46,629 nt of DNA from Clostridia bacterium (GTDB taxonomy: Bacteria > Bacillota > Clostridia > Christensenellales > CAG-1252), in contig JAFSZO010000042.1 in assembly GCA_017455605.1 (NCBI GenBank), positions 1-46,629 of the forward strand, in the 5' to 3' direction. The position numbers and the translations under genes were made by a program. Positions within the stretch are counted from its first letter, which is position 1. Each line of letters opens with the position of its first letter. Under the pieces are notes generated by a model, which had not been told where the DNA came from, searched no databases, and saw only the letters and a list, made by a program, of their open reading frames with translations. Shown here piece by piece: positions 2,441 to 40,697 of the stretch.

Positions 2441-2441
2441 A

Positions 2442-2470: not shown

Positions 2471-2517
2471 GTTCTTGATATATTCTTCACCCCCGAAGAA
2501 ACACAAAGGAGAAAACT

Positions 2518-26979: not shown

Positions 26980-27057
26980 TTATTTGCTGAGCAGGTCGTG
27001 CAGGACGGTCATATCCCAAACGCCCATTTCCTCCACGGAGAGTAGAGCAGCCTTGAG
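26980..27057 (-). pseudogene. Relic of a gltX 3' end, diverged and with an internal in-frame deletion
   Basis: The - strand reads ..LKAALLSVEEMGVWDMTVLHDLLSK*. Compare the intact gltX tail LEAALPAVEEMGAWDMTVLHDLL[~55 aa]LLSK* (27703-27944). Nucleotide similarity is visible over 26980-26997 and 26998-27057. Confidence 0.75.
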
Positions 27058-27119
27058 ATTTAATTGGCTTTTATTCTGCCGCAAAGGTTGAGCGGACCAC
27101 TTTTGGATACTTTTATTTT

Positions 27120-27326
27120 TTACAAACGGAATCCAGTGTTCTTTGATGTAAACAAACTACAAGAAGAGGTTGCATTTACGTCTCTGTACTCCCACTCTTT
27201 TCTGAAAATCCCTCTTTGAACCATATTTTGCTCATTGCCGCAAAAGTATCTATCATTAAACAATGCGGCTAACGCGTTTTTCTCTCGGCAATATATACAA
27301 TTTTTACAAATCTTTTCTTCTTCCAT
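27120..27326 (-). CDS. Hypothetical small Cys-rich protein
   Basis: 68 aa with CKNCIYC...FCG (possible Zn ribbon). GGAGG SD lies 9 nt upstream. AT-rich island. Confidence 0.5.
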   Translation of the reverse strand: MEEEKICKNCIYCREKNALAALFNDRYFCGNEQNMVQRGIFRKEWEYRDVNATSSCSLFTSKNTGFRL

Positions 27327-27352
27327 CGTATTATTCCTCCGATTTTTATTAT

Positions 27353-27392
27353 GTTACATATTGTAACTTTTTATAGTGTAACAAAATGTTAC
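27353..27392. promoter_or_regulatory. Two 15-bp palindromes (candidate operators) between divergent genes
   Basis: GTTACAtatTGTAAC (27353-27367) and GTAACAaaaTGTTAC (27378-27392). Confidence 0.5.
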
Positions 27393-27413
27393 TATTTTGT
27401 CAAGAGGGTTTTT

Positions 27414-27632
27414 ATGAAAATGATCGGACTGCGTTTAATCCGAAAGAAGAAGAGGCTCAGCCAATTAAAGGTGGCGATGGATCTTGCGATCAGTCGAGAG
27501 GCTCTTTCCCATTACGAGACCGGGAAACGCAGTCCGGATATCAATTTGCTTTCTCGCTTCTCCGAATACTTTGACGTTTCCATCGACTATTTGATTAAAG
27601 GCGAAGAGTTCAAGCCGAAAAATCACAGATGA
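27414..27632 (+). CDS. XRE-family helix-turn-helix transcriptional regulator (72 aa)
   Basis: LSQLKVAMDLAISREALSHYETGKRSPDINLL. ATG 27414 follows AGAGGG. The ORF-track start 27351 lies inside the operators. Confidence 0.75.
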   Translation: MKMIGLRLIRKKKRLSQLKVAMDLAISREALSHYETGKRSPDINLLSRFSEYFDVSIDYLIKGEEFKPKNHR

Positions 27633-27644
27633 ACTCATGATCAT

Positions 27645-27676
27645 AAAAAAAGATGCGAGAACTTTCGCATCTTTTT
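27645..27676. terminator. Bidirectional terminator between the XRE gene and gltX
   Basis: AAGATGCGA (27650-27658) / TCGCATCTT (27665-27673), flanked by an A-run and a T-run. Confidence 0.8.
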
Positions 27677-27702
27677 ATAACTGATTTCTTTTATAGTGCT
27701 TT

Positions 27703-29130
27703 TTATTTACTCAACAGGTCGATCGAAAACTTCAAGCGGCGGATGCATTCCTCCTTGCCGAGGAGAGCCGCCATTTCAGTGGCGCCGCCGGGGGTGGATG
27801 CCCTGCCCGTGATCGCGATGCGGAAGGACCACAACATCTGTCCCTTCTTGAGCCCTGCCTGCTCCGCCGCCGCGACGAGCAGATCGTGCAGCACCGTCAT
27901 ATCCCACGCGCCCATTTCCTCCACGGCGGGCAGCGCGGCTTCGAGTGCGGTCAAAGCGACCGAGGCGTCGGTCTTCATCTTTTGATGGTCAAACAGCGCG
28001 AGATCGTAGGCGCCGAACTCCTCCAAAAAGTCCACGAGGGACGGGATCTCCGAAAGGATCTCCACGCGGGGGATCAGGAGGGGCGCGAGCAGATTGTAGT
28101 CGTACTTGCCGCCCACCTTGGAGTTGTCGAGGAAAGGGCGCGCCGCCGCGAGGAACTCCTCGACGGACATATTCTTGATGTAGCTCGCATTGAGCCAACG
28201 CAGTTTCGCCTCGTCAAAGATCGCGGGCGAGATGCACACGCCCTCCACCGAGAACAGGCGGATGAGGTCGTCCATCGACAACATCTCTTCGTTGTTCTTC
28301 GGGCTCCAGCCGAGCAGCGCGATGTAATTCACGATCGCCTTGGGGAGATAGCCCTTCTTCACGAAGTCGTCAAAGTTGGCGTCGCCGTAGCGCTTGCTGA
28401 GCTTCCGCTCCTTGTCCTTCATAATGGGGGGCAGATGGATGTACTGCGGACGCTCCCATCCGAACGCGTCGTAGATCAGGTTGTACTTCGGCGTGCTGGA
28501 CAGATACTCGTTGCCGCGGATCACGTGGGTGATGCCCATCAAATGGTCGTCCACGACGTTCGCGAAGTTGTAGGTCGGCATCCCGTCGCTCTTCAAAAGG
28601 ACCGCGTCCTCCATATCCTTGTAGGCGACCGAGATCTCGCCGTAGACGAGGTCGGTGTAGGTGCTGACGCCGTCGGTCTCGGGGATGTTCTGCCTGACGA
28701 CGTAGCTGTCGCCGCGCGCGAGGCGCTCCGCGACTTCCTCCTTGGAGAGGCGCAGGCAACGCTTGTCGTACTTCTCGGTGCCGCCGTCCTTCATCTCGCG
28801 CCCTTTGCAGAAGCAATAGTAGGCACCGCCCTTGGCGATCAGCTCCTCCGCGTATTTCTTGTAGATCTCCTTGCGTTCGCTCTGAACGTAGGAATAGTTT
28901 CCCGCCTCTTTGCCGGGGCCCTCGTCGTAGTCGATGCCCGCCTCCTTGAGCGTATTGAAGATCACGTCCACCGCGCCCTCGACGTAGCGACCTTGGTCTG
29001 TGTCCTCGATCCTGATGATGAACTTGCCGCCCGCGTTCTTCGCGAAAAGATAGGCGTAAAGCGCCGTGCGCAGGTTGCCGATGTGCATAAAGCCCGTGGG
29101 GCTGGGTGCGAATCTCGTTCTGACTTCCAT
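27703..29130 (-). CDS. gltX: Glutamyl-tRNA synthetase
   Basis: Class I motifs: HIGN in RFAPSPTGFMHIGNLRTA, and KLSKR. Confidence 0.93.
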   Translation of the reverse strand: MEVRTRFAPSPTGFMHIGNLRTALYAYLFAKNAGGKFIIRIEDTDQGRYVEGAVDVIFNTLKEAGIDYDEGPGKEAGNYSYVQSERKEIYKKYAEELIAKGGAYYCFCKGREMKDGGTEKYDKRCLRLSKEEVAERLARGDSYVVRQNIPETDGVSTYTDLVYGEISVAYKDMEDAVLLKSDGMPTYNFANVVDDHLMGITHVIRGNEYLSSTPKYNLIYDAFGWERPQYIHLPPIMKDKERKLSKRYGDANFDDFVKKGYLPKAIVNYIALLGWSPKNNEEMLSMDDLIRLFSVEGVCISPAIFDEAKLRWLNASYIKNMSVEEFLAAARPFLDNSKVGGKYDYNLLAPLLIPRVEILSEIPSLVDFLEEFGAYDLALFDHQKMKTDASVALTALEAALPAVEEMGAWDMTVLHDLLVAAAEQAGLKKGQMLWSFRIAITGRASTPGGATEMAALLGKEECIRRLKFSIDLLSK

Positions 29131-29338: not shown

Positions 29339-29375
29339 AAAAAACGGACCTCGAGCGATCCCCAAGGTCCGTTTT
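29339..29375 (-). terminator. Terminator of the four-gene operon
   Basis: AAAAAACGGACC (29339-29350) / GGTCCGTTTT (29366-29375). On the - strand the stem is followed by UUUUUUG. It lies about 40 nt after the stop at 29417. Confidence 0.7.
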
Positions 29376-29416: not shown

Positions 29417-30538
29417 TTACGGCTTGCGCTTTTTCTTCTTGGGATCCTGCTCCCCGTCGCCATTCGAGTCGCCGTTCGAGTCGTCCGCCGCCGCGTCCTC
29501 TGCGTCGAGCATTGCGGCGAGGTCGTTGTCCTCGGCGATGGCGGAAAAGTCATCGTCGAAATCACCGTCGAAGTCGCCGTCGTAGTCGTCGGCTTCCTCG
29601 CGATCGTCGTCCTCCTCTTCCGTTTCGGCATCCTTTTCCTCGTCGTCCTCATCGGCATTGTTTTGCGCCCGTATCCGTTCAAAGCGCTCCCACAGACGCT
29701 GACGCGCCGCTTTGAGTTCCTCGGCGGAACTTCCTTCGGACGGTTCTTCCGACTCCTCGTCTTCGTCATCCTCCTCGGCTCTCTCCCAAAAACGATCTCC
29801 GTCGAATTCGTCTTCCTCGTCTTCGTCCTCGGCATCAAGGTCGACGTCCTCGTCAAACTCAAACGGAAAGTCGTCGTCGGGGTCTTCTTGCGGCCCCTTA
29901 AAGTGCGCGTTTTCCCCTCCGTTCGTCCCTTTGAGTATTCTCTCGATGAGGTTATCGTCTGCCTCGGGTGCGCTCGGCGCGTCCTCTTCCTCCTTGCGGA
30001 GTCTGTCGACGAATTCCTCCGGAGTCAAGAACCCCTTGGTGTAGGAGCGAGATTGCCGGTCGACGGGTCCGGTCTCGGTCCTGCCGAGCACCGCCAGACA
30101 CTCCCGAGGCGAGAGTATGCACCGCCCGTCGGACGACAGGATCCCGAGGTTGCAGCATTTGTCCCGCAACGTATGAGCCTGTATGTACCCGATCCGAAGC
30201 AGGATCTGAAACTTGGAGATCCCGAAGGTCATATCGGGCGACCGAGAGAAACGGTCGATCATACTCGCGAGCCGCGGGTCTTCCGCCGCCGCCTCGGCGA
30301 TACGACGAAGGCGCTCCGTCATCACGACGGGCGCATTTTCGCGGGCTTGAGCCGACGCGGCGCCCTCGTTGATGCGGAAAGTCATCCCACCCACGTAGGT
30401 GACGACGCCTTTTTTGACCAATTCTTCCACCCCGGCCCTGACCGTCTTGTACGGCAAGGAAAGAGCCATCTGCAGTTCGGGAACGGTGATCTCTTTTCGC
30501 TCCGAGATTACGGAGAGGATCTGATCGCTCGCTTTCAT
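29417..30538 (-). CDS. Double winged-helix protein (second module FtsK-gamma-like) with a ~190-aa poly-acidic tail ending in a basic patch
   Basis: wHTH1 ITVPELQMALSLPYKTVRAGVEELVKKGVV. wHTH2 ISKFQILLRIGYIQAHTLRDKCCNLGIL resembles the FtsK gamma S.LQR.L.IGYNRAARL...G pattern. Tail: EDEDEEDEFDGD...DYDGDFDGDFDDDF...KKKKRKP. TAAATG junction with the upstream gene. Confidence 0.75.
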   Translation of the reverse strand: MKASDQILSVISERKEITVPELQMALSLPYKTVRAGVEELVKKGVVTYVGGMTFRINEGAASAQARENAPVVMTERLRRIAEAAAEDPRLASMIDRFSRSPDMTFGISKFQILLRIGYIQAHTLRDKCCNLGILSSDGRCILSPRECLAVLGRTETGPVDRQSRSYTKGFLTPEEFVDRLRKEEEDAPSAPEADDNLIERILKGTNGGENAHFKGPQEDPDDDFPFEFDEDVDLDAEDEDEEDEFDGDRFWERAEEDDEDEESEEPSEGSSAEELKAARQRLWERFERIRAQNNADEDDEEKDAETEEEDDDREEADDYDGDFDGDFDDDFSAIAEDNDLAAMLDAEDAAADDSNGDSNGDGEQDPKKKKRKP

Positions 30539-32209
30539 TTAATACACCTTCCTCAGTCTTTTCACGGTATAGAGATACTTGTCTGCGTAGGGATCGATAT
30601 TGCAGATATAGTCGCGCTCGTCCGCCTTGGGCAGAGAGTTCATCTCCTCGCAAAGGAAATACCGCTCCATTCTCGACGAGAGCACCGGTTTGTTGACCTC
30701 CCTGACGACGCATTCTCCCGCCGTGAGGAGCGCGAGACGGCTCCTCGTCACGAGGGGAATGGTCTCGGGCTGACGGGTGCGGATGTGCTCGTCCTCGCCG
30801 TTCAGGGCGCCCATCGGCGCGATGCGAGTGTGCGAGAGGCATTCGTTGGAGAACTCCGTCAAGGTGGAGTAGTCGTTCGAGCCGAAGAACACCTTCACGT
30901 TGAGGTTATCCCTCACGATCTTCGCCACTTTTCCTTCGTAGACGTTGTCCAGCTGCGCGTAGCTCTGCATCACGAGGATGAACCAGATGTTCCTGCCCGC
31001 GCAGGCGGAGATCACCGTGTCGAAGTCCTTGATGGCGGGGAAGTTGCCGAATTCGTCCAAGACGAAGTACCAGGGTACCTCGAGACGGTGATTCGGCAGC
31101 GTATTCGCCACCCCGATCAGGAAGGTGTAGAGCGACTGGATAAAGAGCTGGATCGTGTGATAGCTCAGCCTCAGCTCGTCACGGAAGTCGATGAAGATGG
31201 CGACCGGCTTGCCGCCGATCAGATCGGAAAACTCGAAGGAATTGCACGACGTGATCGTGCGGGTCGTCACCTCGCGGAAGGGCGCGAGCTTGGTGACGAG
31301 CGAGGTGTAGTAGCCGGCGCGGGTGTTCCGCGGCGTGGAGATCAGGATGTCGCGCGCCAGGATCAGCGCCTTGGAGTCATCCTTCCTGCCGGTAAAGAAG
31401 CCGTGGTCCTTCACCTCGTCGCTGCCTACGACGATGGAGTCCACGATCTTGATCAGCGTATTCATCGAGAAGTTGTCTTCGGTGATCGGATTGTCGTGGC
31501 GGTCGATGTCTTCGAGCATCCCGTAGATGAATGCCTCCAACAGCTGTCTGGCGCCGTCCTCCCAGCTGGGGTCCTTCACGGACAACGAGGGACAGACCAT
31601 CAGCGCGTAGGAGGAGATCATCTTTTCCACCTCGCCCATGCGGCGCGAACGGACCTCGTTCACCGCGCGATCCAGCTTGCCGAGGTCGGTGTAGACCCTG
31701 CCGAGGAATTCGTTTTTCACCCGTCCGTTGCTCTCGACGAGAACGACCTCGTCGAGGGTATCGCGGGCGCGGAGATAGGCGCGATAGATCTCGGTGAATT
31801 GGTTCCAGTACTCGCTGTGATCCTGATCGCGGAAATTGAGCAGTTTCACGTCGTAGCCCTCCTGCACCAAGGTCGCGGCGCACGCCTGATAGATCTCGCC
31901 TTTGGGGTCGCAGATCACCATGTTGCGCTTGATCTTTTGCAGCGCGTTGGAGAGCACGGTCGGGATGATGTAAGAGGTAGTCTTGCCCTGACGGGTCGCG
32001 GCGACCACGCCGACGTGGTTGTCCTGCTCCGAAAAGAACAGCTTGAGCCTGCCGTTCACACGGAAGCAACCCTTCAACACGCCGGGCATATACCTCGTGT
32101 GCAGTTCGTCCCAATAGACGCTCTGCGGATGATCCTCGGGCAGCTCGTCATAGCGCAGGAGCTGCATATTCTCGTATTCCGATAGGACTTTGTTCTCAAT
32201 TCTCATCAT
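30539..32209 (-). CDS. Soluble VirD4/TraG/TraD-type (type IV coupling protein-like) P-loop NTPase
   Basis: Walker A VVAATRQGKTTSYIIP, CDPKGE, Walker B WYFVLDEFGNFPAI, and RNIWFILVMQSYAQLDNVYG. No N-terminal TM helices. ATG 32209 lies 8 nt after GGAGGTGG. Confidence 0.8.
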   Translation of the reverse strand: MMRIENKVLSEYENMQLLRYDELPEDHPQSVYWDELHTRYMPGVLKGCFRVNGRLKLFFSEQDNHVGVVAATRQGKTTSYIIPTVLSNALQKIKRNMVICDPKGEIYQACAATLVQEGYDVKLLNFRDQDHSEYWNQFTEIYRAYLRARDTLDEVVLVESNGRVKNEFLGRVYTDLGKLDRAVNEVRSRRMGEVEKMISSYALMVCPSLSVKDPSWEDGARQLLEAFIYGMLEDIDRHDNPITEDNFSMNTLIKIVDSIVVGSDEVKDHGFFTGRKDDSKALILARDILISTPRNTRAGYYTSLVTKLAPFREVTTRTITSCNSFEFSDLIGGKPVAIFIDFRDELRLSYHTIQLFIQSLYTFLIGVANTLPNHRLEVPWYFVLDEFGNFPAIKDFDTVISACAGRNIWFILVMQSYAQLDNVYEGKVAKIVRDNLNVKVFFGSNDYSTLTEFSNECLSHTRIAPMGALNGEDEHIRTRQPETIPLVTRSRLALLTAGECVVREVNKPVLSSRMERYFLCEEMNSLPKADERDYICNIDPYADKYLYTVKRLRKVY

Positions 32210-33809
32210 AGTTACCACCTCCGAAACCGAACGTTTTCGTGCGCATACCTTTCATTTTCTCGCGCACCGCCGCAGCGGTGACGACCGTTTCCTTCCTCTT
32301 TGCGCGATAGGAACGAAGCGTTTTGTCGATGACTGCCTCCGCCACGTCGATGGGCAAGGTGGCGAGCAAGGTCGCCGCCTCCTCTTCGACGGACAGCTGA
32401 TCCAGCCCGAACGCCTTCTTGCGCTCGTCGAAGATCGCCCGGATCATCCGCGCGGTCTTTTGCTTGCCGAAGGGCGGCAGTTCCACGATCTCGCCATCCT
32501 CCGTGAGCTTCCGAGCGTTTTCACGATCGCAAATGCAGATCGGCAGCACCCCGGACAGGTCGATCGAGAGGCTCGGCGATTCGAGGTTGAAGTCCGCGCG
32601 CTTTTCCCCGCTGAGGAAATCGACTACTTCGTCGAAGGCATACTCCTCGATCTTGCCGTCGAGTACGAGCAAGATCACGTTGTTTTTGTCGCGGCTGAGA
32701 TCGCGCAGGAAAACGTTGTTTTTGGTGCGGACGAGGTCCCTCGACTTCAGCGCCTTGACGTCCACCGTGATGACCTTCGCATCCGCAAAGAGGTCACGCA
32801 GGAGCGAGACAGCCATATCCGAGGCGTAGTCCGAATCGCTCGAGAGTACGAGCGGAAGATACAGGGACTTGTCCCTGAGATCCGCGTTCATCAAGTTGGT
32901 CGTGAGCGGCTCGCGGATCTCGGAGAGATCTAAGGGAGCGCGATCGAGCGCCCGTTCGTCGAAGGGCAAGGTGCCGAATCGGAGTCCGAGCGGCAAGTCG
33001 CAGACCTCGGCGATCAAGGCGGGATTGCCCGCGTAAACGACCTTCTTTTTGTCCTCAAGGGAGATCGCGCGGCTGAAGACCACCCGACCGACGCTCGCGT
33101 CGTAGAGCAACGGATTGACCTTGCCGTGCGCGAGAGCGGTCTTCACCACGAGGACCTCGGGCGAGGGAGCCGAGAGGGAGACGCCGTAGCGCGCCGCCGC
33201 CTTTTTCGCCAGTTCCTCGTAGGGCGCGTGACTGAGGACGGCGGCGAGGATCCTCGCGTTCTCCGCCTTGTGCGCCTCGTCGTAATAGAGGAGCGCGAGC
33301 GCGCTCGTCAGATCGTTCCAACGGGCGGCTTTGGTCAGGTCTTCGAGACCCTTCTCCTTGCCTGCGCCGTAGCCGCTCACCCCTTCGCATTCGAGGATGC
33401 CGACGGTGCGGAGCGCGATGACGTTGCCGCGAAACGCCTGTTCGGTCAGCGCGAGAGCGATCTGCCCGTCGGTGGCGTCCGCCGCAATGTGCAGCTCGTA
33501 TTTCGCGACTGCCTTGAAGGCTTCGCCTTTGATCGTGACGAGGTCCTCGCTCTCCTTGTCTAAGAGCGAGGGATGTCCCTGCATCGCCTCGTACTCCTTG
33601 ATGCGCTTGTAGCGAGCATACTCCTCCAAGCTCAGGATCTCGGAGACGATCTCCTTGCGGGTGTCGGCGTAAAGGCGTCCGGTTTCTTCCGCGTCGATGC
33701 AGAAAAGATCTGCCAAGAGACAAAAGAACCTCTTGTCCTCAAAGGACCCGCCGAGGATCTCTTTGAGCGAGAAATATTCTCTGTAAAACAGTTCGTTAGT
33801 GATGTTCAT
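32196..33809 (-). CDS. Hypothetical protein: Sel1/TPR-like repeats plus a degenerate (P-loop-less) AAA+-like C-terminal half
   Basis: AFRGNVIALRTVGILECEGV...LTKAARWNDLTSALALLYYDEA is Sel1-like. The C-terminal half follows a CbbX/SpoVK-like order (LPLVLSS.., NVILLVLDG, VLPICICD, ELPPFGKQKTARMIRAIF) without a GxxxxGK[ST] P-loop. AGGAGG SD. Confidence 0.65.
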   Translation of the reverse strand: MNITNELFYREYFSLKEILGGSFEDKRFFCLLADLFCIDAEETGRLYADTRKEIVSEILSLEEYARYKRIKEYEAMQGHPSLLDKESEDLVTIKGEAFKAVAKYELHIAADATDGQIALALTEQAFRGNVIALRTVGILECEGVSGYGAGKEKGLEDLTKAARWNDLTSALALLYYDEAHKAENARILAAVLSHAPYEELAKKAAARYGVSLSAPSPEVLVVKTALAHGKVNPLLYDASVGRVVFSRAISLEDKKKVVYAGNPALIAEVCDLPLGLRFGTLPFDERALDRAPLDLSEIREPLTTNLMNADLRDKSLYLPLVLSSDSDYASDMAVSLLRDLFADAKVITVDVKALKSRDLVRTKNNVFLRDLSRDKNNVILLVLDGKIEEYAFDEVVDFLSGEKRADFNLESPSLSIDLSGVLPICICDRENARKLTEDGEIVELPPFGKQKTARMIRAIFDERKKAFGLDQLSVEEEAATLLATLPIDVAEAVIDKTLRSYRAKRKETVVTAAAVREKMKGMRTKTFGFGGGNYDEN

Positions 33810-33921
33810 ACCCGTTACCTCCTTTCGCCTTGTTTTCGGCTTTGATTACGACTCGGATGGAAGACGTTGTCCTGAGTGCGTTTGGGTGATCGTTCCGCTG
33901 AAAAACGTCGAATGTATCCAT
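33796..33921 (-). CDS. 41-aa leader ORF overlapping the start of the 537-aa gene
   Basis: MDTFDVFQRNDHPNALRTTSSIRVVIKAENKAKGGNGYEHH. AGGAGG lies 8 nt before the ATG at 33921. 14-nt overlap with the next gene. Too short for the ORF track. Confidence 0.4.
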   Translation of the reverse strand: MDTFDVFQRNDHPNALRTTSSIRVVIKAENKAKGGNGYEHH

Positions 33922-34134: not shown

Positions 34135-34686
34135 TTAAAGCTTGATGATGCTCGTCATCGGATTCACGAGATACAGTTCGTCCAAGCGGAAGAAGCTACC
34201 TTGCAAGCTCGCGTAGATCTCACCCGTCTCGCCCTGCACCGCGTAGATGATCTGTCCCACGACAAGCATCAGTCCGAGGAAGATCGCGAAAGCGAGCACC
34301 ATTCCGAGAGTCTTGTTGATCGCCTTCATCACGACGTTGTCCGCTTCCATCACGCTTTCGAGGATCTTCACGATGATCTTCCTCACGATCTGAACGATTC
34401 CGAAGAGAACGATAGCAAGCACGATGACGTCGATGCGGATCGTCAAGAGGAACTTGACGAACCCCGCGTCCGACGCTGCGAGCTTCTCTTTGAACAGATC
34501 GAGCAGGTTTTGAACGAACCCGAGGCTCAGAACGAATCCGAAGATCAGATAGCAGACCAAGACCGAGATCAAGATACCGCGAATGCCACTCGTCAACCAG
34601 CCCAAGAATTTGCCGAAGCCGACGGTCAGTCCCAAGATGCCGAAGATGATAGCCGCGCCGATAAAGATGTAATCAGCCAAAATCAT
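34135..34686 (-). CDS. cvpA: CvpA-family membrane protein
   Basis: MILADYIFIGAAIIFGILGLTVGFGKFL... with four hydrophobic helices, typical of colicin V production protein family topology. AGGAGGA SD before ATG 34686. Confidence 0.75.
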   Translation of the reverse strand: MILADYIFIGAAIIFGILGLTVGFGKFLGWLTSGIRGILISVLVCYLIFGFVLSLGFVQNLLDLFKEKLAASDAGFVKFLLTIRIDVIVLAIVLFGIVQIVRKIIVKILESVMEADNVVMKAINKTLGMVLAFAIFLGLMLVVGQIIYAVQGETGEIYASLQGSFFRLDELYLVNPMTSIIKL

Positions 34687-35634
34687 AGTTTTTTCCTCCT
34701 TTTTCGCGAAACGCCTTTGGTTTCGCTTTCCGCACGGGTAGGCGCTTCGCCTTGATTGCGTGCGGCGTGTCCTCGCGCCCCGTTGAGAGCGCATCTCGCA
34801 CCGACAATAACGCGCAGGTCGAGATCGAGGAGTATCAGTGGTGGGTCATGGGATCGTTCCTTTCAAAACGCGCGGTGGAAAGCGCCGAAGGTCGATCTCC
34901 CGGATCGGGATCAAACGAACGACGCCGACCGATGCGAGTCGTCCGTGGAAATGCGACGCGCCGCCGCTCTTCGCGACGGTATCGCCGACGGATAACGGGG
35001 GTACCCCCGAGGATCTTATTTAATGAGTGCCTCTTGCTCCGAAACGGAACGAGCTATCACGATTTGCACGTCGCCACGCAACGCGGAAGGGGCGAAACGA
35101 TCGGCTCTGTCGGCAGACGAAAAAGACTCGGTCGCCGCGTTTTTCATTCCCATCGAACGGGGGGCAACAAAAACAGATGCCATACGATCACACTCCTTCG
35201 ACAGAAGCGCACACGTTTGCCGAAATCGGCGGCGCAGAAACCTCTGTCCAAATTTCTTTATACCATTATACCGAAAAGAAGATATTGATGTCAATAGGGG
35301 TAAAACGCCTTTCGGAAGGGTATCGTGAAAAAAACGTCATATGCTCGAGAAAATATCCCTATATTTCCGTATTTTTTCTACAGAGCTCCGATGATTTCGT
35401 CAAAAATCGTCGTGCCTGTGTAATAACGAAGCAAATCGGTTGTAAACTTTATATTTCAATCAAGCGCCCTGCTCGGCTTCTATATATTACATACATACGT
35501 AGAGTACAAACTAGTTATTAATATATAATAACGTACGTTCAAAAAGCTCTTCCTATCTTTTACACGGGCGCGGATCGGCGGGACGCCCTCCTCTCTCCCG
35601 CCGCAAGTGAGAGACGAGCCGTAACGCGGCGCGG

Positions 35635-37524
35635 CTATTCCCCGATCGGCGCGTCGCCGTCAACGCAATGCACGGTCGCTGCGGGGACGTCCTTGGTCAT
35701 ATTGGCTCCTTTCTTGACGGCGCGCCACTCGTCGGCGGTGCCCGTAAAGGTGATGTCCGTCAGACTTCCACACCACAGGAACGCCGCCTCCCCGATGCGC
35801 TTCACCGAGGACGGGATCGTGATCGAGGTCAGACTATTACACCAAGAAAAGGCGGCTCGCCCGATACTCTTCACGGAAGGGGGGATCTCGATGGCAGTCA
35901 GGTTCTTACACTCGGAAAAGGCAGCGTTCCCGATGCTCGTCAATCCCTCGGGGAGCTCGACGCTCGTCAGACTCGTGCAATCCTTAAAGGCGTTGATCCC
36001 GATACTCTCCACCGAAGCGGGAAGCGTGATCGAGGCAAGATTCTTACACGACAGGAACGCAGACGCCCCGATGCTCGTCACGCCGTCCGCGATCGCGACG
36101 GAGACCAGGTCGGCGCGACCCTGAAACGAGCTCTCCCCAATACTCGTCACGGGAGTCTTCGCGATGAGGGCGGGGATCGTCACGTCGACGTCCTTCCCCT
36201 TATAGCCCCCGATCTCGTAGCCGTTCTCCGTCTTTCTCAGCGTGAACACCTTTTTCCAATCCGCCAAGGCGTACTCCCGCACGCCCAGCGCCTTGTCCTG
36301 CCGACTCTGCGCGTAGGCGTCGAGTTTCTTTCGGCTGAACCTCTTCTGCTTGTACTCCAAGAGCGCCGCCGTGATCCCTACCTTACCCGCGGCGGCGGCG
36401 ATCGCTCCGTCCAATTCGTCTATGCCGAACGAAATCCCGATAGGCTCCTCCGTCATTCGCGCAAAAGCAGCCGCGTCGTCATCCTCTGTGATCAGCGAGA
36501 GGAAAGCCTCCTTCTTCCTTTTCAAATACGAGAGGTGATCGGGATAGAGCGGGCTCGCCCCATCCGACAACCAAACGTAGACCGTGGTCGTCTTCGCCTC
36601 TGTATCTTTACATTTACCAAACGCCCAATGCGGCACGACCGGACAATTGAGAAACGACGTGCTCGTGGCACTCTTCGGCATCGGCATCTCGATGCGTCTC
36701 AGAGCCGCGCACCTCGAGAACACGGATCTGCCCAAGAGCTCCAACTCGCCTTTAACGACGACCCGCTCCAACGCCTTGCACCCCGCGAACGCCTCCTCCG
36801 ATACCTCCGTCACGGAGGCGGGGATCTCGACCGAGGTCAAACTCGCGCAATTGTAAAACGCCCTGTACTCGATGCTCGTCACACCGAGAGGCATCTCGAC
36901 GGCGGTCAAACCGACGCACCCCGCAAAAGCCTCCCTTCGAATGCTCTCCACGCCGCTCGGGAGGGAGATCGAGGTCAAGCTCGCGCAATCGCGAAACGTC
37001 CAACGATCAATGCTCGCCAAGCTCTCGGGCAAGGTGATCGCGGACAGATTCGTGCAGCCGTCAAATACGTTGTCGCTGAGGAGCGTCACACCGCTCGGTA
37101 ACGCGATCGAGGGCAAGCTCGTACAGTCTCTGAACGCATCCGACTCAATGCGGGACAACGAACTGTCCTCGGGAAACGTGACGGAGGTCAAGGCGCTGCA
37201 CTCGCAGAACGCATATTGTCCGATGCTCGTCATGCCCTTCCCGATCACGACGGCAGTCAACCCGACGCAACCGCTGAACGCGCAGACGTCAACGCGCGTA
37301 ACGGAGTCGGGGATCTCCACCGCGCGCAGCCGTTCACAACCGCTGAACGCCCATCCCCCGATAAACGTCAAACTCTCGGGGAGGGCGACCGAGAGCAGGC
37401 GCTTTTGCTTTTGAAACACCTTCTCTTCGATGCGCGTCACGCCCTCGGGGACGACCACGTCTCCGCCCTTGCCGACGTACTTGGTCAGCACGCCGTTTTC
37501 TATGATGAAATCTTGTTTTGCCAT
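35635..37524 (-). CDS. BspA-type leucine-rich repeat (LRR_5) protein, 629 aa, no signal peptide
   Basis: Repeats of the form IP.SVT.IG..AF..C..LTSV.LP. Architecture is LRR block, ~170-aa helical linker, LRR block. The N-terminus MAKQDFIIENGVLTKY is not hydrophobic. Confidence 0.85.
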   Translation of the reverse strand: MAKQDFIIENGVLTKYVGKGGDVVVPEGVTRIEEKVFQKQKRLLSVALPESLTFIGGWAFSGCERLRAVEIPDSVTRVDVCAFSGCVGLTAVVIGKGMTSIGQYAFCECSALTSVTFPEDSSLSRIESDAFRDCTSLPSIALPSGVTLLSDNVFDGCTNLSAITLPESLASIDRWTFRDCASLTSISLPSGVESIRREAFAGCVGLTAVEMPLGVTSIEYRAFYNCASLTSVEIPASVTEVSEEAFAGCKALERVVVKGELELLGRSVFSRCAALRRIEMPMPKSATSTSFLNCPVVPHWAFGKCKDTEAKTTTVYVWLSDGASPLYPDHLSYLKRKKEAFLSLITEDDDAAAFARMTEEPIGISFGIDELDGAIAAAAGKVGITAALLEYKQKRFSRKKLDAYAQSRQDKALGVREYALADWKKVFTLRKTENGYEIGGYKGKDVDVTIPALIAKTPVTSIGESSFQGRADLVSVAIADGVTSIGASAFLSCKNLASITLPASVESIGINAFKDCTSLTSVELPEGLTSIGNAAFSECKNLTAIEIPPSVKSIGRAAFSWCNSLTSITIPSSVKRIGEAAFLWCGSLTDITFTGTADEWRAVKKGANMTKDVPAATVHCVDGDAPIGE

Positions 37525-37570: not shown

Positions 37571-40500
37571 TCACATGATCGAGGGAGGCACGTCGCCGTC
37601 CGAGCAATTCACCTTCGTGACGGGCAGGTCCGCCGCCCAGTTCGCCCACTTGTCGATGGCTGTCCACTCGGCGATGGTGCCCGCAAACGTGACGGAGGAC
37701 AGCGCACCGCAAAGAAAGAAGACGTTCTGCCCGAGTCTCCGCAACGTGGAAGGCAGCGTGATCGCGCTCAGCGAGCCGCAACGCAAAAACGCATAGCCGC
37801 CGATGTCGGTGACGCCTTCGGGGATCGCGACCGCGGTCAGAGTATGGCAATCCTCAAAGGCTTTCGGTCCGATGCGCGTCACCGGGGTGTTCCCGATGGC
37901 GGCGGGCACGTACAAGACGGTGTCCCTGCCGTCGTACCTCGTGATCACGTACCGTGACGCCTCCTTTCTCAGCCTAAACACCTCCCTCCAATCCGCCGCC
38001 GTGTACTCCCTCACGCCCAGCGCCTTGTCCTGCAGATCCTTATCGTAGGCGTCGATGCGCCGCCGGCTGTAGGTCTTGTTCTTGTATGACAGCAAAGCTG
38101 CCGTAATGACCGCCTTTCCCGCCGCGGCGTCGATCGCCGTGTCCAATTCGCTTATGCTGTACTTGATGCCGACGGAGGGGTCCGTCAATGCCGCAAAGAG
38201 CGCAACGTCTTCCTCCTCCACGATTCGGCTTAGGAACCGTCTCTTGTTTTTGTTCAGATAGGCGAGGTACTCCTGCTCGATCGGGCGCTCGGCGTCCGCC
38301 AAGCGAAGGGTCACGGAGGCGTCCTGCACCAATTGATTGCCGTACAAAGCGATCATCCAGGCAGGGACGACCGGGCACCTGAGGAAGGGGTTCACCCCCA
38401 TCCTCACCGGACGAGGCATCTTGACGCGGCGCAACCCCTTGCAATCCATAAACGCCGCCGTTCCCAGCTTGTCCAATTTGCCTTCGATGACGACGGTCTC
38501 GAGAGAGTAACAGCCATCGAACGCATTCTCCCCGACCTCGGTGACGGAGGCAGGGAGGGTGATCTCACTCAGCCGCTTGCATTGCCGAAAGGTCGCGAGC
38601 TCGATGCGCCTCACTCCATGCGGGATCGTGACAGACCTCAGATTCTCGCACAAATGGAAGGCGAAATTGCCGATGCTCCTCACGGACGGTGGAATGATCA
38701 TCTCGGTGAGGTCCAAGCAATGCCAAAACGCCGAATCGTAAATAAACCTCGTGCGCTCGTTGATCCTGCATTGCGTGATGCACGACTGTTTCGCCTTGAC
38801 AAAGATCAAGTAGGGGTTTTCCGCGTCGCCCAAATACACACCGTCTTCGTGCTCGGTGTAGCTCAGCGAGGAACATTGGTCGATGATCCCCCTGCCGAGC
38901 TCCGTCACAGAGGACGGCACGAAGAGCGCAGTCAACGCGGTGCAACAGCCGAACGCCGACCCCCCGATGCGGGTCACACCGTGCGGGACCTCGAGCTCGG
39001 TCAGCCCCGTGCATTTGTAAAAAGCACAATCCCCGATACTCGTCACGGAGGCGGGGATCTCGATGCTCGTCAGAGTCGCACAGCCGCAGAAAGCGGAATC
39101 TCCGATGCTCGTCACGCCCTCGGGGATCACGCTCGCGCGGCATCCTACGACCAGCGTCTTGGTCTCGGTCTCGATGAGGCAGTTGTTTTCGCTGTGATAA
39201 CGCGGATTGCCCTCGGCGACCGTCAACGACGTCAGTTCCTCACAGTACGAAAACGCCTCCTCGCCGATGTCGGTCACGCCGGCGGAGATCTCCACCTCGG
39301 TCAGCGCACAGCACCCCGAGAATGCCGACGCCCCGATCCGCGTCACCTCGAAAGGAATGGTCACGGCGGTCAGTTGCCGACAGCGAATAAATGCTCTGTC
39401 ACCGATGCTCGTGACGGGGTACTTGCCGATCTTGGCGGGGATGCGCAGCTCGGCGGCATCGCCTATGTACCTCACGATCTCGTACTCCGATCCCTTCTTT
39501 TTCAGCTCAAACAGCTTTCTCCACTCCGCAGGCGAGAGGGGTCTCCCTCCGAAGATCGCTTCCTCCTGCTTTAAGGCGTAGGCGTCCAGCATCACTTGGC
39601 TGTAGGTCCGCCGCTTGTAGTCCAAGAGCGCCGCGCTGAGCGCCGCTCTGCCCCCGACGGCGTCCAGCGCCGTGTCGAGTTCCCCGATGCCGAAGCGAAT
39701 GCCGATGGGCGGCTCCGTCATCGCCGCAAAAGCAGCCACGTTGTCATTCTCCGCGATCAGCGAAAGGAATCGCGCCTTTTTGCGTTTCAAATAGGCGAGG
39801 TACTCGGGATAGAGGACGCGATCCGACTGCGACAACCAGCGGTAAACGCTCTCCTCCTTTATCGGTTGATTTTTACAACGGGGAAACTCCCAGCTCGGCA
39901 CGACGGGACAACGGAGGAAGGGATACCCCTCCACCTTCGTCGGCGCGGTCATATCGATGCGATGTAATACGTAGCACCTCGAGAAGGCACGCTCGCCGAG
40001 CAGATCCAATCTGCCTTTGACTGTCACGGCATTGAGACTGCGACACCCCTCGAAGGCGCTCTCCCCGATCTCGGTGACCGACGCGGGGATCGTGACGGAA
40101 AGCAGAGCTCTGCAATAGGCAAACGCCTGATTTCCGATGACGGTCACGCCTTCTCGGATCGTGACGGAGGTCAGCGCATCACACCGGGAAAAGGAGTCGT
40201 CCGCGAGCCTCGTCAGAGAGGGCGGCAACGTGACCGAAGTCAAGCTCTTACAGAAAGCGAAAGCGCCCTGCCCGAAGGTCGTCAGCCGCCCGTCTTCGGC
40301 GAAGGTGAGCGAGGCGATGCGATCACAGCTGAAGAACGCCTGCTTCCCGATGCTCGTTACACTCGGAGGAATCGCGATCGCAGTCAACGCCTTGCACTCA
40401 CAAAACGCACCCTCCGAGATCCTCGTCACGCCCGAAGGGATCGTGACGGAGGCGAGGTGCTTGCACCGGGCGAACGCATACCGTTCGACGCACCGCACGG

Positions 40501-40651
40501 AGGACGGCAACGTGACCGAGGTCAAGGTGTCGCACATGGAAAAGGCGGACTCCCCGATCGAGAGGATGCCGTCCGGGATCACGACCGCCCCGCCTTTGCC
40601 TCGATAGCCCGTCAGTACGCCGTTTTCAACGATAAAGTCTTCCTTCTCCAT
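37571..40651 (-). CDS. BspA-type leucine-rich repeat (LRR_5) protein, ~1026 aa, no signal peptide
   Basis: Same repeat type. The LRR-linker module occurs twice, then a final LRR block. ATG 40651 (MEKEDFIVENGVLTGY) lies 8 nt after GGAAGG. Confidence 0.85.
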   Translation of the reverse strand: MEKEDFIVENGVLTGYRGKGGAVVIPDGILSIGESAFSMCDTLTSVTLPSSVRCVERYAFARCKHLASVTIPSGVTRISEGAFCECKALTAIAIPPSVTSIGKQAFFSCDRIASLTFAEDGRLTTFGQGAFAFCKSLTSVTLPPSLTRLADDSFSRCDALTSVTIREGVTVIGNQAFAYCRALLSVTIPASVTEIGESAFEGCRSLNAVTVKGRLDLLGERAFSRCYVLHRIDMTAPTKVEGYPFLRCPVVPSWEFPRCKNQPIKEESVYRWLSQSDRVLYPEYLAYLKRKKARFLSLIAENDNVAAFAAMTEPPIGIRFGIGELDTALDAVGGRAALSAALLDYKRRTYSQVMLDAYALKQEEAIFGGRPLSPAEWRKLFELKKKGSEYEIVRYIGDAAELRIPAKIGKYPVTSIGDRAFIRCRQLTAVTIPFEVTRIGASAFSGCCALTEVEISAGVTDIGEEAFSYCEELTSLTVAEGNPRYHSENNCLIETETKTLVVGCRASVIPEGVTSIGDSAFCGCATLTSIEIPASVTSIGDCAFYKCTGLTELEVPHGVTRIGGSAFGCCTALTALFVPSSVTELGRGIIDQCSSLSYTEHEDGVYLGDAENPYLIFVKAKQSCITQCRINERTRFIYDSAFWHCLDLTEMIIPPSVRSIGNFAFHLCENLRSVTIPHGVRRIELATFRQCKRLSEITLPASVTEVGENAFDGCYSLETVVIEGKLDKLGTAAFMDCKGLRRVKMPRPVRMGVNPFLRCPVVPAWMIALYGNQLVQDASVTLRLADAERPIEQEYLAYLNKNKRRFLSRIVEEEDVALFAALTDPSVGIKYSISELDTAIDAAAGKAVITAALLSYKNKTYSRRRIDAYDKDLQDKALGVREYTAADWREVFRLRKEASRYVITRYDGRDTVLYVPAAIGNTPVTRIGPKAFEDCHTLTAVAIPEGVTDIGGYAFLRCGSLSAITLPSTLRRLGQNVFFLCGALSSVTFAGTIAEWTAIDKWANWAADLPVTKVNCSDGDVPPSIM

Positions 40652-40697
40652 ATCTTTTCCTTCCGATGGCACCCCGCCGCACGCGGCAGAGGGGCAT

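Follow-up and report, generated by a model that had tools for sequence, protein, structure and literature searches.

A conserved three-gene chromosomal module of Christensenellales-type Clostridia unites a soluble VirD4/TraG-type ATPase, a pseudo-Lon protein and an FtsK-gamma-type protein, and may couple to ClpP

The stretch of DNA analysed here (46,629 nt; hereafter the window) carries three adjoining genes on its minus strand, g2, g3 and g4, that recur in the same order in related genomes. Our best reading, a tentative one, is that Christensenellales-type gut Clostridia have maintained the trio vertically as a chromosomal module of their own and that it may encode a DNA-targeted machine coupled to the protease ClpP.

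Results

The operon consists of g2 (32196..33809, minus strand, 537 aa), with a putative Sel1-like N-terminal domain and a LonA-type pseudo-AAA+ module; g3 (30539..32209, minus strand), a soluble VirD4/TraG-type ATPase of 556 aa counted from the ATG, in an ORF that opens at a GTG at 32218; and g4 (29417..30538, minus strand, 373 aa), a winged-helix (wHTH)/FtsK-gamma-like protein with acidic tracts. Each gene is preceded by a GGAGG-type Shine–Dalgarno sequence (SD), g2 and g3 overlap by 14 nt, and g3 and g4 are joined by TAAATG. An intrinsic terminator lies at the operon end (~29339..29375, minus strand; a GGACC...GGTCC stem followed by TTTTTT), with a terminator scan match at 29361-29346 on the same strand. 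The co-directional large ORFs, overlaps, SDs and hairpin terminator described in the first-pass annotation are all present in the sequence. That annotation had also counted a fourth gene, a 41-aa mini-ORF (33796..33921, minus strand) with an SD of its own. The mini-ORF lies outside the conserved module and has no homologue at any related locus, and in several relatives the space before g2 is only 46–108 nt or holds a different gene; it is therefore probably not a gene, and the operon probably has three genes rather than four.

Upstream of the trio lies a membrane protein gene (34135..34794, minus strand; 4–5 TM segments) whose start is probably at 34686, giving 183 aa. In every close relative a copy with 74–78% identity stands before the trio, but distant copies do not, and no sigma-70-like promoter was found between this gene and g2. 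We regard it as a syntenic neighbour in the window's clade whose membership in the module is doubtful. The flanks had been named gltX and cvpA; the product labelled CvpA is this 4–5-TM protein, which has no Pfam match, so that the label is provisional. GC3 is 0.80, 0.85 and 0.73 for g2, g3 and g4 against 0.86 for gltX, codon usage is host-like, and the trio shows no compositional anomaly, in agreement with the core-gene-like composition reported earlier. The operon lies on the G-rich strand. The remaining genes of the window are housekeeping genes and include neither a relaxase nor an integrase or phage gene, as had been stated.

The operon is not an orphan, as it had been called: the g2 family comprises 276 representative clusters at 50% identity, found only in Christensenellales-type MAGs. 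The trio co-occurs across related genomes in a strict g2–T4CP–g4 order, with genes overlapping or abutting, in ~25 loci. Embedding in an ICE or prophage, which was looked for as counter-evidence, was not found; genes for a relaxase, VirB4 or phage structural proteins are absent from these ~25 loci, as is any prophage context. A Pfam survey of 149 neighbouring proteins from 20 loci, in which the 25 most frequent families were examined, likewise revealed no recurring relaxase, VirB4, other T4SS, phage structural, membrane-channel or WXG100-type family, and no g2 homologue occurs among 72,556 plasmids or 50,697 phages or in IMG/VR. The position of the trio is the same in all 8–9 genomes of the window's clade. 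Identity among relatives is 73% for g2, 43% for g4 and 94% for gltX: g2 diverges more quickly than the flanks, and g4 does so in particular. Neighbours of the trio include Macro/ASCH, HAD_SAK_2 and Metallophos genes, which point equally to a conflict or a repair context.

The assignment of g3 as a VirD4/TraG-type ATPase lacking a TM anchor was borne out. It matches Pfam T4SS-DNA_transf, TraG-D_C and TrwB_AAD_bind with E-values of 1.1e-40, 1.6e-21 and 2.7e-12, scoring 140.3, 77 and 46.7 bits against PF02534, PF12696 and PF10412 and passing all three cutoffs (20.1, 22 and 20.5). Walker A (AATRQGKT) is intact at residue 70 in the 556-aa numbering, and the motifs AATRQGKTTS and YFVLDEFGNF, conserved across the T4CP family, are present. 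YF.LDEFGNFP is kept at at least 90% in 22 g3 orthologues, and the Walker motifs are at least 90% conserved over lineages that are only ~30% identical in g2. No TM segment was detected: the KD19 maximum is 1.36, and all 22 orthologues fall below 1.6, against 2.44 for the T4CP of plasmid pCd5_2. Identity to plasmid T4CPs is at most 27%, the score against NCBIfam NF045973 (VirD4-like CD1115 family, equivalog) is 199.3 bits, under the cutoff of 250, and in PADLOC-DB 2.0 the protein gives a 24-bit match to the P-loop region of mad8. T4CPs without a TM segment are already a recognised subfamily, represented by TraJ of pIP501, and TM-less T4CPs that need a separate small membrane protein are also known (PMC7434980). 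The missing TM segment of g3 has a precedent in TraJ.

The product of g2 has no Pfam, NCBIfam or PADLOC match, and its assignment comes from structure modelling and family profiles. The AF2 model (pLDDT 93.6, pTM 0.88) contains a Sel1-like helical domain, with helix pairs over residues 85–227, and an AAA+ module with an alpha-beta plus lid fold. Foldseek searches with this model returned the Lon AAA+ module as the best match (E 9e-8 to 1e-5), followed by RuvB. Against the PDB, the family profile matched Sel1 at 1.2e-10, centred on residues 120–164, where the single sequence has no Pfam match, and Lon at 7e-5 to 8e-5, with LonA 3m6a at 7.9e-5. The P-loop and sensor-1 strands are in register with those of B. 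subtilis LonA. At the P-loop position, GxxxxGK[ST] occurs in none of the 99 aligned members (the sole match, in P0101, sits elsewhere) and the family reads (C/S)SDSxY, while the degenerate Walker B has R or K in place of Asp in most of the 99. The Lon chain runs on into its protease domain at the point where g2 ends; g2 has no S16 protease domain, its chain stopping ~15 residues past the lid helices. The first-pass annotation had recognised a Sel1-like N-terminal half, which the family profile and the model support, and a P-loop-less AAA+ module, which is upheld, but had likened the latter to CbbX/SpoVK; by profile and model, the AAA+ half is instead LonA/HCLR-like. To judge from its motifs, its AAA+ ring would be unable to hydrolyse ATP and would constitute a dead Lon-like scaffold.

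The chain of g2 ends in a flexible C-terminal tail (pLDDT <50) that reads F527-G528-F529-G-G. Its tripeptide is near-invariant across the family as [FYIM]-G-[FY]: of the 99 members, 91 have Y, F, I or L at residue 527, all have G528 and 97 have F529, and some carry exactly IGF. The tail codons vary synonymously or conservatively across members, which argues for selection at the amino-acid level. The same stretch has a second use (32212..32233, minus strand; ttcggtttcggaggtggtaactATG), in that the F-G-F-G-G codons hold the GGAGG SD of g3. This GGA GGN arrangement is also found in 16 related loci; since it is the SD that codes for the two glycines following G-F, part of the invariance of the tail may be translational. 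The tripeptide resembles the IGF loop of ClpX; in ClpP partners of the ClpX/ClpA/ClpC type the flexible element reads [I/L/V]-G-[F/L]. IGF loops dock in the H sites of ClpP (PMC9035409).

In 11 loci, from deep clades only 30–35% identical in g2, a canonical clpP gene directly precedes g2, at a distance of −31 to +4 nt. The linked ClpP matches Pfam at 3.8e-66 and a solved ClpP at 208 bits, and the motifs GMAASMG and IHQPLGG line up. There is no clpP in the window or its operon, clpP is not adjacent to the trio in about half of the loci, and its adjacency elsewhere could reflect synteny by descent and need not mean that the genes are functionally coupled. Other protease genes also adjoin the trio: SprT-like in five loci (L001, L002, L004, L028 and L031) and YgjP/WLM-type metalloprotease in three (L014, L015 and L018). 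Protease adjacency and the IGF-like tail of g2 form a functional clue absent from the first-pass annotation, and the one that we rate strongest.

The product of g4 comprises an N-terminal wHTH (residues 1–56), a second, degenerate FtsK-gamma-like module (~100–150) and extended poly-D/E tracts. It also has a conserved short helix (EELKAARQRLWERFERIR), and its C-terminus (KKKKRKP) is basic. It stands alone and is not fused to an FtsK/SpoIIIE alpha-beta motor. The window's protein scores 17.1 bits against Pfam FtsK_gamma (PF09397), below the GA of 30.6, so the gamma assignment rests on positional orthologues (L010-L021), which score 52–89 bits, carry one or two bona fide FtsK_gamma domains, with as many as three wHTH modules in a chain, and whose modules align with those of the window. 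The AF2 model (pLDDT 75.7, from a shallow MSA) has H-b-H-H-b-b topology in residues 1–56 and a helical module in 75–150; Foldseek returned generic wHTH proteins (E ~3e-3) and PADLOC gave wHTH-level matches only (E >1e-3). The earlier description of the second wHTH as FtsK-gamma-like therefore holds for the orthologues and is sub-threshold for the window's own protein. These comparisons support a predicted FtsK-gamma-type wHTH protein with acidic tracts, assigned via its orthologues.

Discussion

We propose, at somewhat less than even odds, that the trio is a vertically inherited module encoding a T4CP motor that works in the cytoplasm, is targeted to DNA and is linked to ClpP via a pseudo-Lon adaptor. 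The proposal starts from the gene content, folds, motif states, linkage and distribution observed above, and extends conditionally to oligomeric state, ClpP docking, DNA binding, substrate and biological role. The ancestral operon would have been clpP-g2-g3-g4; in the window's clade clpP would have gone from the operon, with a SprT-like gene upstream in some members. The g3 protein would be a hexameric-type ATPase, now without membrane anchor or any T4SS partner, and would serve as the sole active motor. The g2 protein would be a LonA-derived pseudo-ATPase whose Sel1-like domain binds substrate or partner and whose [FYIM]-G-[FY] tail docks in hydrophobic ClpP pockets in the manner of the IGF loops of ClpX and ClpA. 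The g4 protein, with FtsK-gamma-type winged helices on poly-acidic linkers, would bind DNA and load or regulate the motor. The T4CP-type translocase would then engage a DNA-associated protein or nucleoprotein, and the pseudo-Lon protein would pass the substrate to ClpP for degradation.

The role may lie on the housekeeping side, in nucleoprotein quality control or the removal of DNA–protein crosslinks, or on the defence side, in the interception of invading DNA–protein complexes. The clpP linkage suggests a DNA-guided, protease-coupled machine rather than a mobile-element leftover. Points against the ClpP-coupled reading include, besides the incomplete clpP linkage, the degenerate gamma module of the window's g4 and the conflict- or repair-type neighbours, that to our knowledge no ClpP partner lacking an AAA+ motor has been described, and that we know of no T4CP that acts on dsDNA with gamma domains. 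It is distinctly unlikely, but would be the most far-reaching form of the proposal, that the trio represents a new class of ClpP-dependent machine, in which a T4CP-type (FtsK-HerA-superfamily) hexamer replaces the AAA+ unfoldase as power source, a Lon-derived pseudo-ATPase ring with an IGF-like tail bridges to ClpP, and reiterated FtsK-gamma modules target DNA. If true, the machine would extract and degrade DNA-bound or cross-linked proteins, or proteins that pilot invading DNA.

A role in anti-mobile-element defence or conflict is unlikely but far from negligible. A cytoplasmic decoy T4CP would recognise an incoming relaxase–ssDNA complex or phage nucleoprotein, the gamma protein would sense DNA, and the invader would be neutralised, possibly by proteolysis; mechanistically this overlaps with the ClpP-coupled reading and differs by its immune role. 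The T4CP ancestry shared with Gram-positive conjugative plasmids and the fast divergence of g2 and g4 relative to gltX are consistent with it, as are conflict-type genes that recur downstream (YgjP/WLM, Macro+ASCH, HAD_SAK_2, Metallophos), sporadic PADLOC-type neighbours (IetA, TRIP13, mad3) and one locus that abuts a serine-recombinase element. The PADLOC check of the defence role raised in the first-pass annotation brought nothing in its favour: PADLOC models match neither g2 nor g4, and g3 only weakly at the mad8 P-loop. The constant position within the clade, host-like codon usage, core-gene flanks, neighbours that are not consistently defence genes and a housekeeping-grade clpP at the head of the operon also argue against it.

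A chromosome-handling motor akin to soluble FtsK/SftA, in which the gamma protein reads polar motifs and directs a T4CP-type pump in segregation, dimer resolution or septal DNA clearing, is improbable. It would accommodate the bona fide FtsK_gamma domains and multiple wHTH modules of g4 orthologues, the solubility of g3, the chromosomal syntenic context and the G-rich strand. However, g3 belongs to the VirD4/TraG and not the FtsK family, the window's clade has a degenerate gamma module, g4 evolves too fast for a reader of conserved motifs, and the pseudo-Lon partner, IGF-like tail and clpP linkage are left unexplained.

Quite improbable is a decayed ICE/IME remnant or mobilisation module, that is, an orphan coupling protein with a DNA-binding factor that is non-functional or hijacks a T4SS encoded elsewhere. 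The Pfam and NCBIfam matches of g3 are all to conjugation families, some TM-less T4CPs depend on a small membrane protein supplied separately (PMC7434980), the window has a small multi-TM gene upstream, and one locus (L003) adjoins a large serine recombinase, SSB and methylases. Against this, intact ORFs and Walker conservation across lineages ~30% identical in g2 indicate purifying selection, relaxase, VirB4 and other T4SS families do not recur among the 149 neighbours from 20 loci, g2 is absent from the plasmid and phage collections, g3 is distant from every plasmid T4CP and composition is not anomalous. A T7SS-like EccA/EccC analogue for protein export, suggested earlier from the superficial parallel of a TPR/Sel1 plus AAA+ protein beside an FtsK-HerA-superfamily ATPase, is very remote and fails on defining features, since the AAA+ module is Lon-derived and catalytically dead rather than CbbX-type as in EccA, g3 is a single-domain VirD4 protein without TM rather than a three-domain EccC, and no membrane channel or WXG100-type family recurs among the surveyed neighbours.

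Comparison with known systems

With EccA–EccC of type VII secretion, the trio shares the pairing of a repeat-domain AAA+ protein with an FtsK-HerA-superfamily ATPase; g2 has an inactive module from another AAA+ clade, g3 belongs to another ATPase family, and membrane components and substrates are missing. Like the relaxosome accessory proteins TrwA and TraM, which stimulate T4CP ATPase activity, g4 is a small DNA-binding-type protein encoded beside a T4CP, and by analogy its acidic or charged tails could contact the motor; its fold is unrelated (wHTH/gamma versus ribbon-helix-helix), and it has neither oriT nor relaxase context.

In g4 orthologues, the wHTH modules exceed the Pfam threshold for the gamma domain of FtsK, SpoIIIE and SftA, and with SftA a soluble relative of such motors is already on record. 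Unlike in those proteins, the gamma modules are unfused, reiterated on one chain between poly-acidic linkers, paired with a VirD4-type motor and, in the window's g4, degenerate.

With T4CPs (VirD4/TraG/TrwB), the CD1115 family and TraJ of pIP501, g3 shares the fold, Pfam families and intact Walker A/B motifs, and TraJ likewise lacks the TMD (PMC7434980). It differs in its low identity to plasmid members and sub-cutoff NCBIfam score, is chromosomal and lineage-specific, is never found beside relaxase, VirB4 or T4SS genes, and is always paired with the pseudo-Lon and gamma-domain proteins.

LonA (HCLR clade) and inactive Lon-like proteins are the best match of the large and small AAA+ subdomains of g2 in both sequence and structure. 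In contrast to LonA, g2 lacks Walker A, its Walker B is degenerate, a Sel1-like domain stands in place of the Lon N-domain, and a flexible tail of 10–15 residues with the IGF-like motif replaces the S16 domain.

Finally, the trio has in common with ClpXP and ClpAP a related HCLR-clade scaffold and, in many relatives, a clpP gene directly upstream, and the [hydrophobic]-G-[F/Y] of its flexible tail resembles their IGF/IGL loops. Its candidate docking motif is at the extreme C-terminus of g2 rather than in an internal loop, and whereas the AAA+ ring powers those proteases, that of g2 is predicted not to hydrolyse ATP, and the only active ATPase of the operon would be RecA-like, of the FtsK-HerA superfamily.

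Organization of the operon and its surroundings

In the window, g2 (32196-33809), g3 (30539-32209) and g4 (29417-30538), all on the minus strand, encode proteins of 537, 556 and 373 aa: a Sel1-like protein with a pseudo-Lon AAA+ module, a type IV coupling protein (T4CP)-like ATPase, and an acidic winged-helix (wHTH)/FtsK-gamma-like protein. The length of g3 is counted from ATG, its ORF opening at GTG 32218. The layout described in the first-pass annotation was reproduced: g2 and g3 overlap by 14 nt, g3 and g4 meet at TAAATG, each gene is preceded by a GGAGG-type SD, and a GGACC...GGTCC hairpin followed by T6, at approximately 29339-29375, ends the operon. Base composition is, as had been stated, like that of core genes (GC3 0.80, 0.85 and 0.73 for g2, g3 and g4 vs 0.86 for gltX). 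A fourth gene had also been proposed, a 41-aa mini-ORF at 33796-33921 (minus strand). The ORF and its own SD exist, yet no counterpart was found in any related locus compared, and several relatives carry only 46-108 nt, or a different gene, upstream of g2. The mini-ORF is probably non-coding, and we therefore count the operon as three genes.

The gene upstream, at 34135-34794 (minus strand), encodes a membrane protein with 4-5 TM segments; its earlier label, cvpA, is not backed by any Pfam match at E ≤ 0.01. The conserved part of the protein spans 183 aa, and the listed 219-aa ORF probably starts too early. The stretch between this gene and g2 yielded no sigma-70-like promoter, which makes co-transcription with the operon possible. 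Its membership of the module is doubtful, synteny being confined to the window's clade.

The other genes of the window are ordinary housekeeping genes, encoding phosphoribosyltransferases, type III glutamine synthetase, AsnA, NAD synthase, a PP-loop ATPase, CCA/poly(A) polymerase, a two-component system, thymidylate kinase, MTHFR/MetH, GltX and an amylase. Relaxase, integrase and phage genes are absent from the window, as first reported, and it contains no clpP. Two large BspA-type leucine-rich-repeat proteins are encoded in tandem on the minus strand at 35635-37524 (629 aa) and 37571-40672 (1033 aa); the larger matches LRR_5 (2e-145) and the smaller clusters with it by BLAST. In relatives, Listeria-Bacteroides-repeat surface proteins take their place near the trio. 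Three patches of low GC (0.43-0.45 vs ~0.59) lie at 2001-3000, 27001-28000 and 43001-44000, the second and third with XRE/HTH_3-type regulator genes (27351-27632, plus strand; 43168-44160, minus strand). The patches may represent small inserts gained by horizontal transfer, without connection to the operon.

The three genes are conserved together across related genomes

A scan of one genome per GTDB species yielded 19 loci, all in MAGs; exact-protein lookup added 7, and scanning metagenomes for the upstream membrane protein added 4. Genes in these loci were called with a conservation-guided caller, high-GC loci being prone to antisense ORFs. Most of the 19 MAGs are labelled Christensenella, Christensenellaceae, Coproplasma, Scatosoma or unclassified Clostridia/Clostridiales/Eubacteriales, and two carry the outlying labels Mollicutes and Corallococcus. 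The contig in the MAG labelled Corallococcus sp. (L018, JAMPAB010000017.1) has a Christensenellales-type clpP-trio neighbourhood, and the label is probably a binning or labelling error.

A soluble T4CP gene follows g2 in every locus with enough sequence, usually overlapping it, and a g4-family or other gamma-like gene comes next in most loci; a lack of co-occurrence, which the first-pass annotation had named as evidence against its reading, was thus not observed. Within the window's clade (g2 57-98% identical), the trio always lies between the same 183-aa membrane protein and gltX. Between the window and the related locus L001, identity falls from 94% (GltX) and 90% (MetH) through 85% (g3), 78% (the membrane protein) and 73% (g2) to 43% (g4), indicating that the motor, g3, is conserved like a normal gene and that g4 evolves fast. 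Even on a conservative reading, these data yield a strictly conserved three-gene module.

g2 carries a Lon-derived AAA+ module without a P-loop

g2 matched no Pfam, NCBIfam or PADLOC model. A word-indexed search returned nine relatives and exhaustive HMMER 276 cluster representatives at 50% identity; the best 150 of the 276 are almost all 500-580 aa long and matched over nearly their full length. This is a new protein family of several hundred clusters without a Pfam model, however conservatively the remaining data are read. The AlphaFold2 model, built on a 99-sequence alignment (pLDDT 93.6, pTM 0.88), is all-helical over the N-terminal ~300 residues, and the family profile matches solved Sel1-repeat proteins (E 1.2e-10) with its centre at residues 120-164.

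The C-terminal half is an AAA+ module whose best Foldseek matches are the AAA+ modules of LonA/LONP1 (E 9e-8 to 1e-5), followed by RuvB; the g2 profile also finds Lon at the sequence level (E 7e-5 to 8e-5). In alignment with B. subtilis LonA, the strand-loop PLCLSSDSDY falls in register with Lon iLCLAGPPGVGKTS, and the strand LDLSxVLPICxCDxxN aligns to FDLSKVLFIATANN. A beta-hairpin at residues 407-416 of the model, ahead of the sensor-1 strand, would correspond to the pre-sensor-1 hairpin of the HCLR clade. Walker A is missing at the P-loop position in all 99 aligned members, the sole regex match lying elsewhere in the chain; the Walker B aspartate is replaced by R or K in most of them, and the Lon protease domain is absent. 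The module is therefore Lon-derived and P-loop-less: the earlier call of a P-loop-less AAA+-like protein was correct, and its assignment to the CbbX/SpoVK type gives way to Lon.

g3 is a soluble coupling-protein-like ATPase

g3 matches the Pfam families T4SS-DNA_transf (1.1e-40), TraG-D_C (1.6e-21) and TrwB_AAD_bind (2.7e-12). Its best NCBIfam model is the VirD4-like CD1115 family, at 199 bits against a 250-bit cutoff, and the plasmid proteins nearest to it, T4CPs of the CD1115 family from Gram-positive conjugative plasmids, share only 25-27% identity with it; an exact-sequence lookup of the window's g3 gave no match. One of these plasmid T4CPs, that of pCd5_2, has 729 aa and a hydrophobic N-terminus; g3 begins ~70 residues ahead of its own Walker A. 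In agreement with the claim that the TM anchor is missing, no TM-grade segment occurs in g3 or in 22 orthologues. Walker A reads AATR[QL]GKT in 18 of the 22 orthologues and differs slightly from this in two; Walker B (YF.LDEFGNFP) is conserved. Since TM-less T4CPs are a recognised subfamily, exemplified by TraJ of pIP501 (PMC7434980), the soluble state of g3 alone is not new; what is new is its genomic company. Annotation pipelines would mislabel the module as 'conjugal transfer protein'. In two metagenomic loci the T4CP gene is split into two ORFs (L003, 10444-12156; L020, 11600-13200), which could reflect a frameshift, an assembly error or a pseudogene.

g4 is a divergent winged-helix protein

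The g4 of the window scores 17 bits against FtsK_gamma (GA 30.6) and matches generic wHTH families at its N-terminus, all below threshold. Its positional equivalents in related loci belong to the same family and reach 52-89 bits for FtsK_gamma, sometimes over two stretches. Profiles thus support the T4CP assignment made earlier and, at the family level, the gamma assignment. All members share an N-terminal wHTH with a P-E/D-h-Q...L-x-Y signature, poly-D/E linkers and more wHTH/gamma modules. The C-terminus consists of a short conserved helix and a KKKKRKP tail in the window's clade, and of a different conserved domain in other clades. A 3-sequence AlphaFold2 model of residues 1-162, of moderate quality (pLDDT 75.7), contains a canonical wHTH (1-56) and a second helical module (75-150). 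Foldseek matched it at marginal E-values to generic small wHTH DNA-binding proteins, a comparison in which gamma is not separable from generic wHTH. The description of g4 as two winged-helix modules, gamma-like, followed by an acidic tail accordingly stands at the family level and is weak for the window's protein alone, in which the gamma module is degenerate. Word-indexed searches for g4 gave one match each because g4 diverges too fast.

A conserved g2 tail and recurrent linkage to proteases

Four columns are invariant in the 99-sequence g2 alignment, three of them (K94, W164, P273) off the tail, and the strongest contiguous conservation lies at the extreme C-terminus. Of the 99 members, 91 have Y, F, I or L at position 527, and some read exactly I-G-F; G528 (99/99), F529 (97/99), G530 (93/99) and G531 (91/99) follow, and the tail residues have pLDDT < 50. 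The protease domain of Lon starts where its AAA+ module ends, and by this analogy the g2 tail would project from the protease-facing side of the ring.

The last two tail glycine codons are almost always GGA GGN and form the GGAGG SD of the T4CP gene, whose start lies 7-10 nt downstream; this dual-coding stretch (32212-32233, minus strand, in the window) recurs in 16 related loci. The invariance of G530/G531 is thus confounded by translation signals, the overlap inflating their apparent conservation. At 527-529 the codons vary (TTC, TTT, TAC, TGC, ATA, ATC and ATG; GGA, GGT and GGC; TTC, TTT and TAC, respectively) and the residue class is kept, which shows that selection acts on the amino acids. 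The explanation that the whole FGFGG tail is merely the g3 ribosome-binding site is accordingly rejected for the first three residues and stands as a caveat for the last two. A flexible [hydrophobic]-G-[F/Y] element of this form is the means by which ClpX and ClpA dock into the hydrophobic H sites of ClpP (PMC9035409, PMC7112952).

ClpP is the commonest neighbour of the trio, accounting for 10 of 149 surveyed proteins, with a further case in L005; its gene is in every case the one that directly precedes g2, the spacing being -31 to +4 nt. It is a canonical ClpP (Pfam 3.8e-66; 208 bits to solved Gram-positive ClpP), with GMAASMG and IHQPLGG aligned, which we take to be the sites of the catalytic Ser and His. 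That it might be a prophage head protease was rejected on this similarity to solved cellular ClpPs, no other phage structural families occurring nearby. The 11 clpP-linked loci are spread over at least six g2 clades with a mutual identity of only 30-35%, which points to an adjacency that is ancestral or repeatedly maintained. It may be inherited synteny.

In the window's clade the operon lacks clpP, and a SprT-like zinc protease gene lies directly upstream of g2 in L001, L002, L004 and L028; in L031 it adjoins the gene of the upstream membrane protein, the contig ending before g2. A YgjP-like/WLM metallopeptidase gene follows g4 in L014 and L018 and lies upstream in L015. SprT and WLM are bacterial relatives of the Spartan/Wss1 DNA-protein-crosslink proteases.

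Other recurrent neighbours are DUF1292 (8 loci), an HTH-like protein of 200-300 aa (10 copies in 9 loci), Macro+ASCH, HAD_SAK_2 and Metallophos. The gene for the DUF1292 protein (~100 aa) lies a short way 5' of clpP or g2 in clades whose g2 identity is as low as 25-30% (L006 341-637; L014 8972-9442; L015 5321-5662; L018 9078-9407; L021 9667-9975; L025 1545-1901; L026 9622-9933) and 3' of the trio in L024; the protein may be an optional fourth member of the module. In several genera, a co-directional string 3' of the trio encodes a YgjP/WLM-like metallopeptidase, Macro+ASCH, a small unknown protein, HAD_SAK_2 (the 'Swiss Army Knife' RNA-repair HAD) and a Metallophos phosphoesterase (L014 14487-17611; L018 14438-15136; L011 14657-15577; L021 15151-18092). 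The string may be tied to the trio in function, or it may constitute a repair or conflict cassette in its own right. Some loci have a second protease/AAA+ cluster nearby, made up of three genes: one for an FtsH-like protein of 1161 aa in which an M41 peptidase domain accompanies two AAA modules, one for a trypsin-like peptidase, and one for an N-terminally extended RuvB-like AAA+ protein of 508 aa (L010 15935-19420; L013 2229-5977; L024 18157-20373).

Proposed mechanism and alternative explanations

The analysis establishes what the module is composed of, its folds, motif states and gene order, its linkage to clpP and other protease genes, its restriction to one lineage, and its lack of a T4SS or phage context. 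Going beyond this, we propose, tentatively and with slightly less than an even chance of its being right as a whole, that the module is a ClpP-coupled, DNA-targeted translocase. g2 would form a Lon-like ring or scaffold without ATP hydrolysis, bind partners or substrates through its Sel1-like domain and dock on ClpP through the IGF-like tail. g3 would provide ATP-driven translocation, and g4 would bind DNA via its gamma-type wHTH modules and load, target or regulate the motor; the acidic tracts of g4 would mimic DNA, autoinhibit or contact the motor. As substrate we envisage a nucleoprotein or a protein associated with DNA. Two roles are conceivable: a housekeeping one, in which roadblocks or crosslinked proteins are removed and at which the alternation of ClpP and SprT/WLM-type proteases hints, and a defensive one, in which relaxase-DNA or phage nucleoprotein is captured. 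The weak points of the model are the window without clpP, the tail motif that is partly a ribosome-binding site, and the degenerate gamma module of the window.

If true, the model means that a coupling ATPase of conjugation has been recruited to work entirely in the cytoplasm, that Lon can evolve into an ATP-independent adaptor, and that ClpP can work with partners built differently from ClpX, ClpA and ClpC. Beyond that, it would open a way to study how proteins are removed from DNA, or anti-plasmid/anti-phage immunity, in Christensenellales, an abundant, health-associated and genetically unexplored gut lineage.

An immune role in which ClpP coupling is not necessary is a rather unlikely alternative: no PADLOC system matches the module, and PADLOC matches among the neighbours are scattered. 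Separately, a MADS (mad8) lead was dropped as a weak match to the P-loop only. An FtsK/SftA-like chromosome function, to which the gamma-domain family of g4 would point, appears improbable; g4 belongs to that family yet is not part of an FtsK motor. We consider it very improbable that the trio is an ICE/IME remnant or mobilisation module, as the T4CP homology of g3 might suggest. Among the 149 neighbours, from 20 loci, none of the 25 commonest Pfam families is a relaxase, VirB4 or T4SS family; the only phage structural PHROGs matched are ClpP look-alikes, and a single integrase occurs, in L003. No g2 relatives were found in phage and plasmid collections by tblastn or in IMG/VR scanned with the g2 alignment. 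The embedding in ICEs or prophages that the first-pass annotation had named as evidence against its reading was thus not observed. In L003 (1-8067), a gene for a large serine recombinase adjoins the clpP-trio operon, and on the other side are genes for SSB, SAM synthetase, an XRE-type regulator and two DNA methylases. The arrangement resembles a mobile element integrated beside clpP, not an element carrying the trio. A type VII-like analogue, the EccA/EccC parallel drawn earlier, deserves almost no credence, the trio differing from it in AAA+ clade, activity and context.

Comparison with known systems

A full-text literature search found no published description of this gene combination. g2 is derived from Lon yet lacks Walker A, an intact Walker B and the protease domain. 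g3 is homologous to T4CPs in its ATPase but lacks the membrane anchor, relaxase linkage and T4SS linkage that define them, and scores under the cutoff of CD1115, the nearest curated family. In our assessment the module belongs to none of the known types of system; each of its parts has a recognisable fold, and its function is one that we infer.
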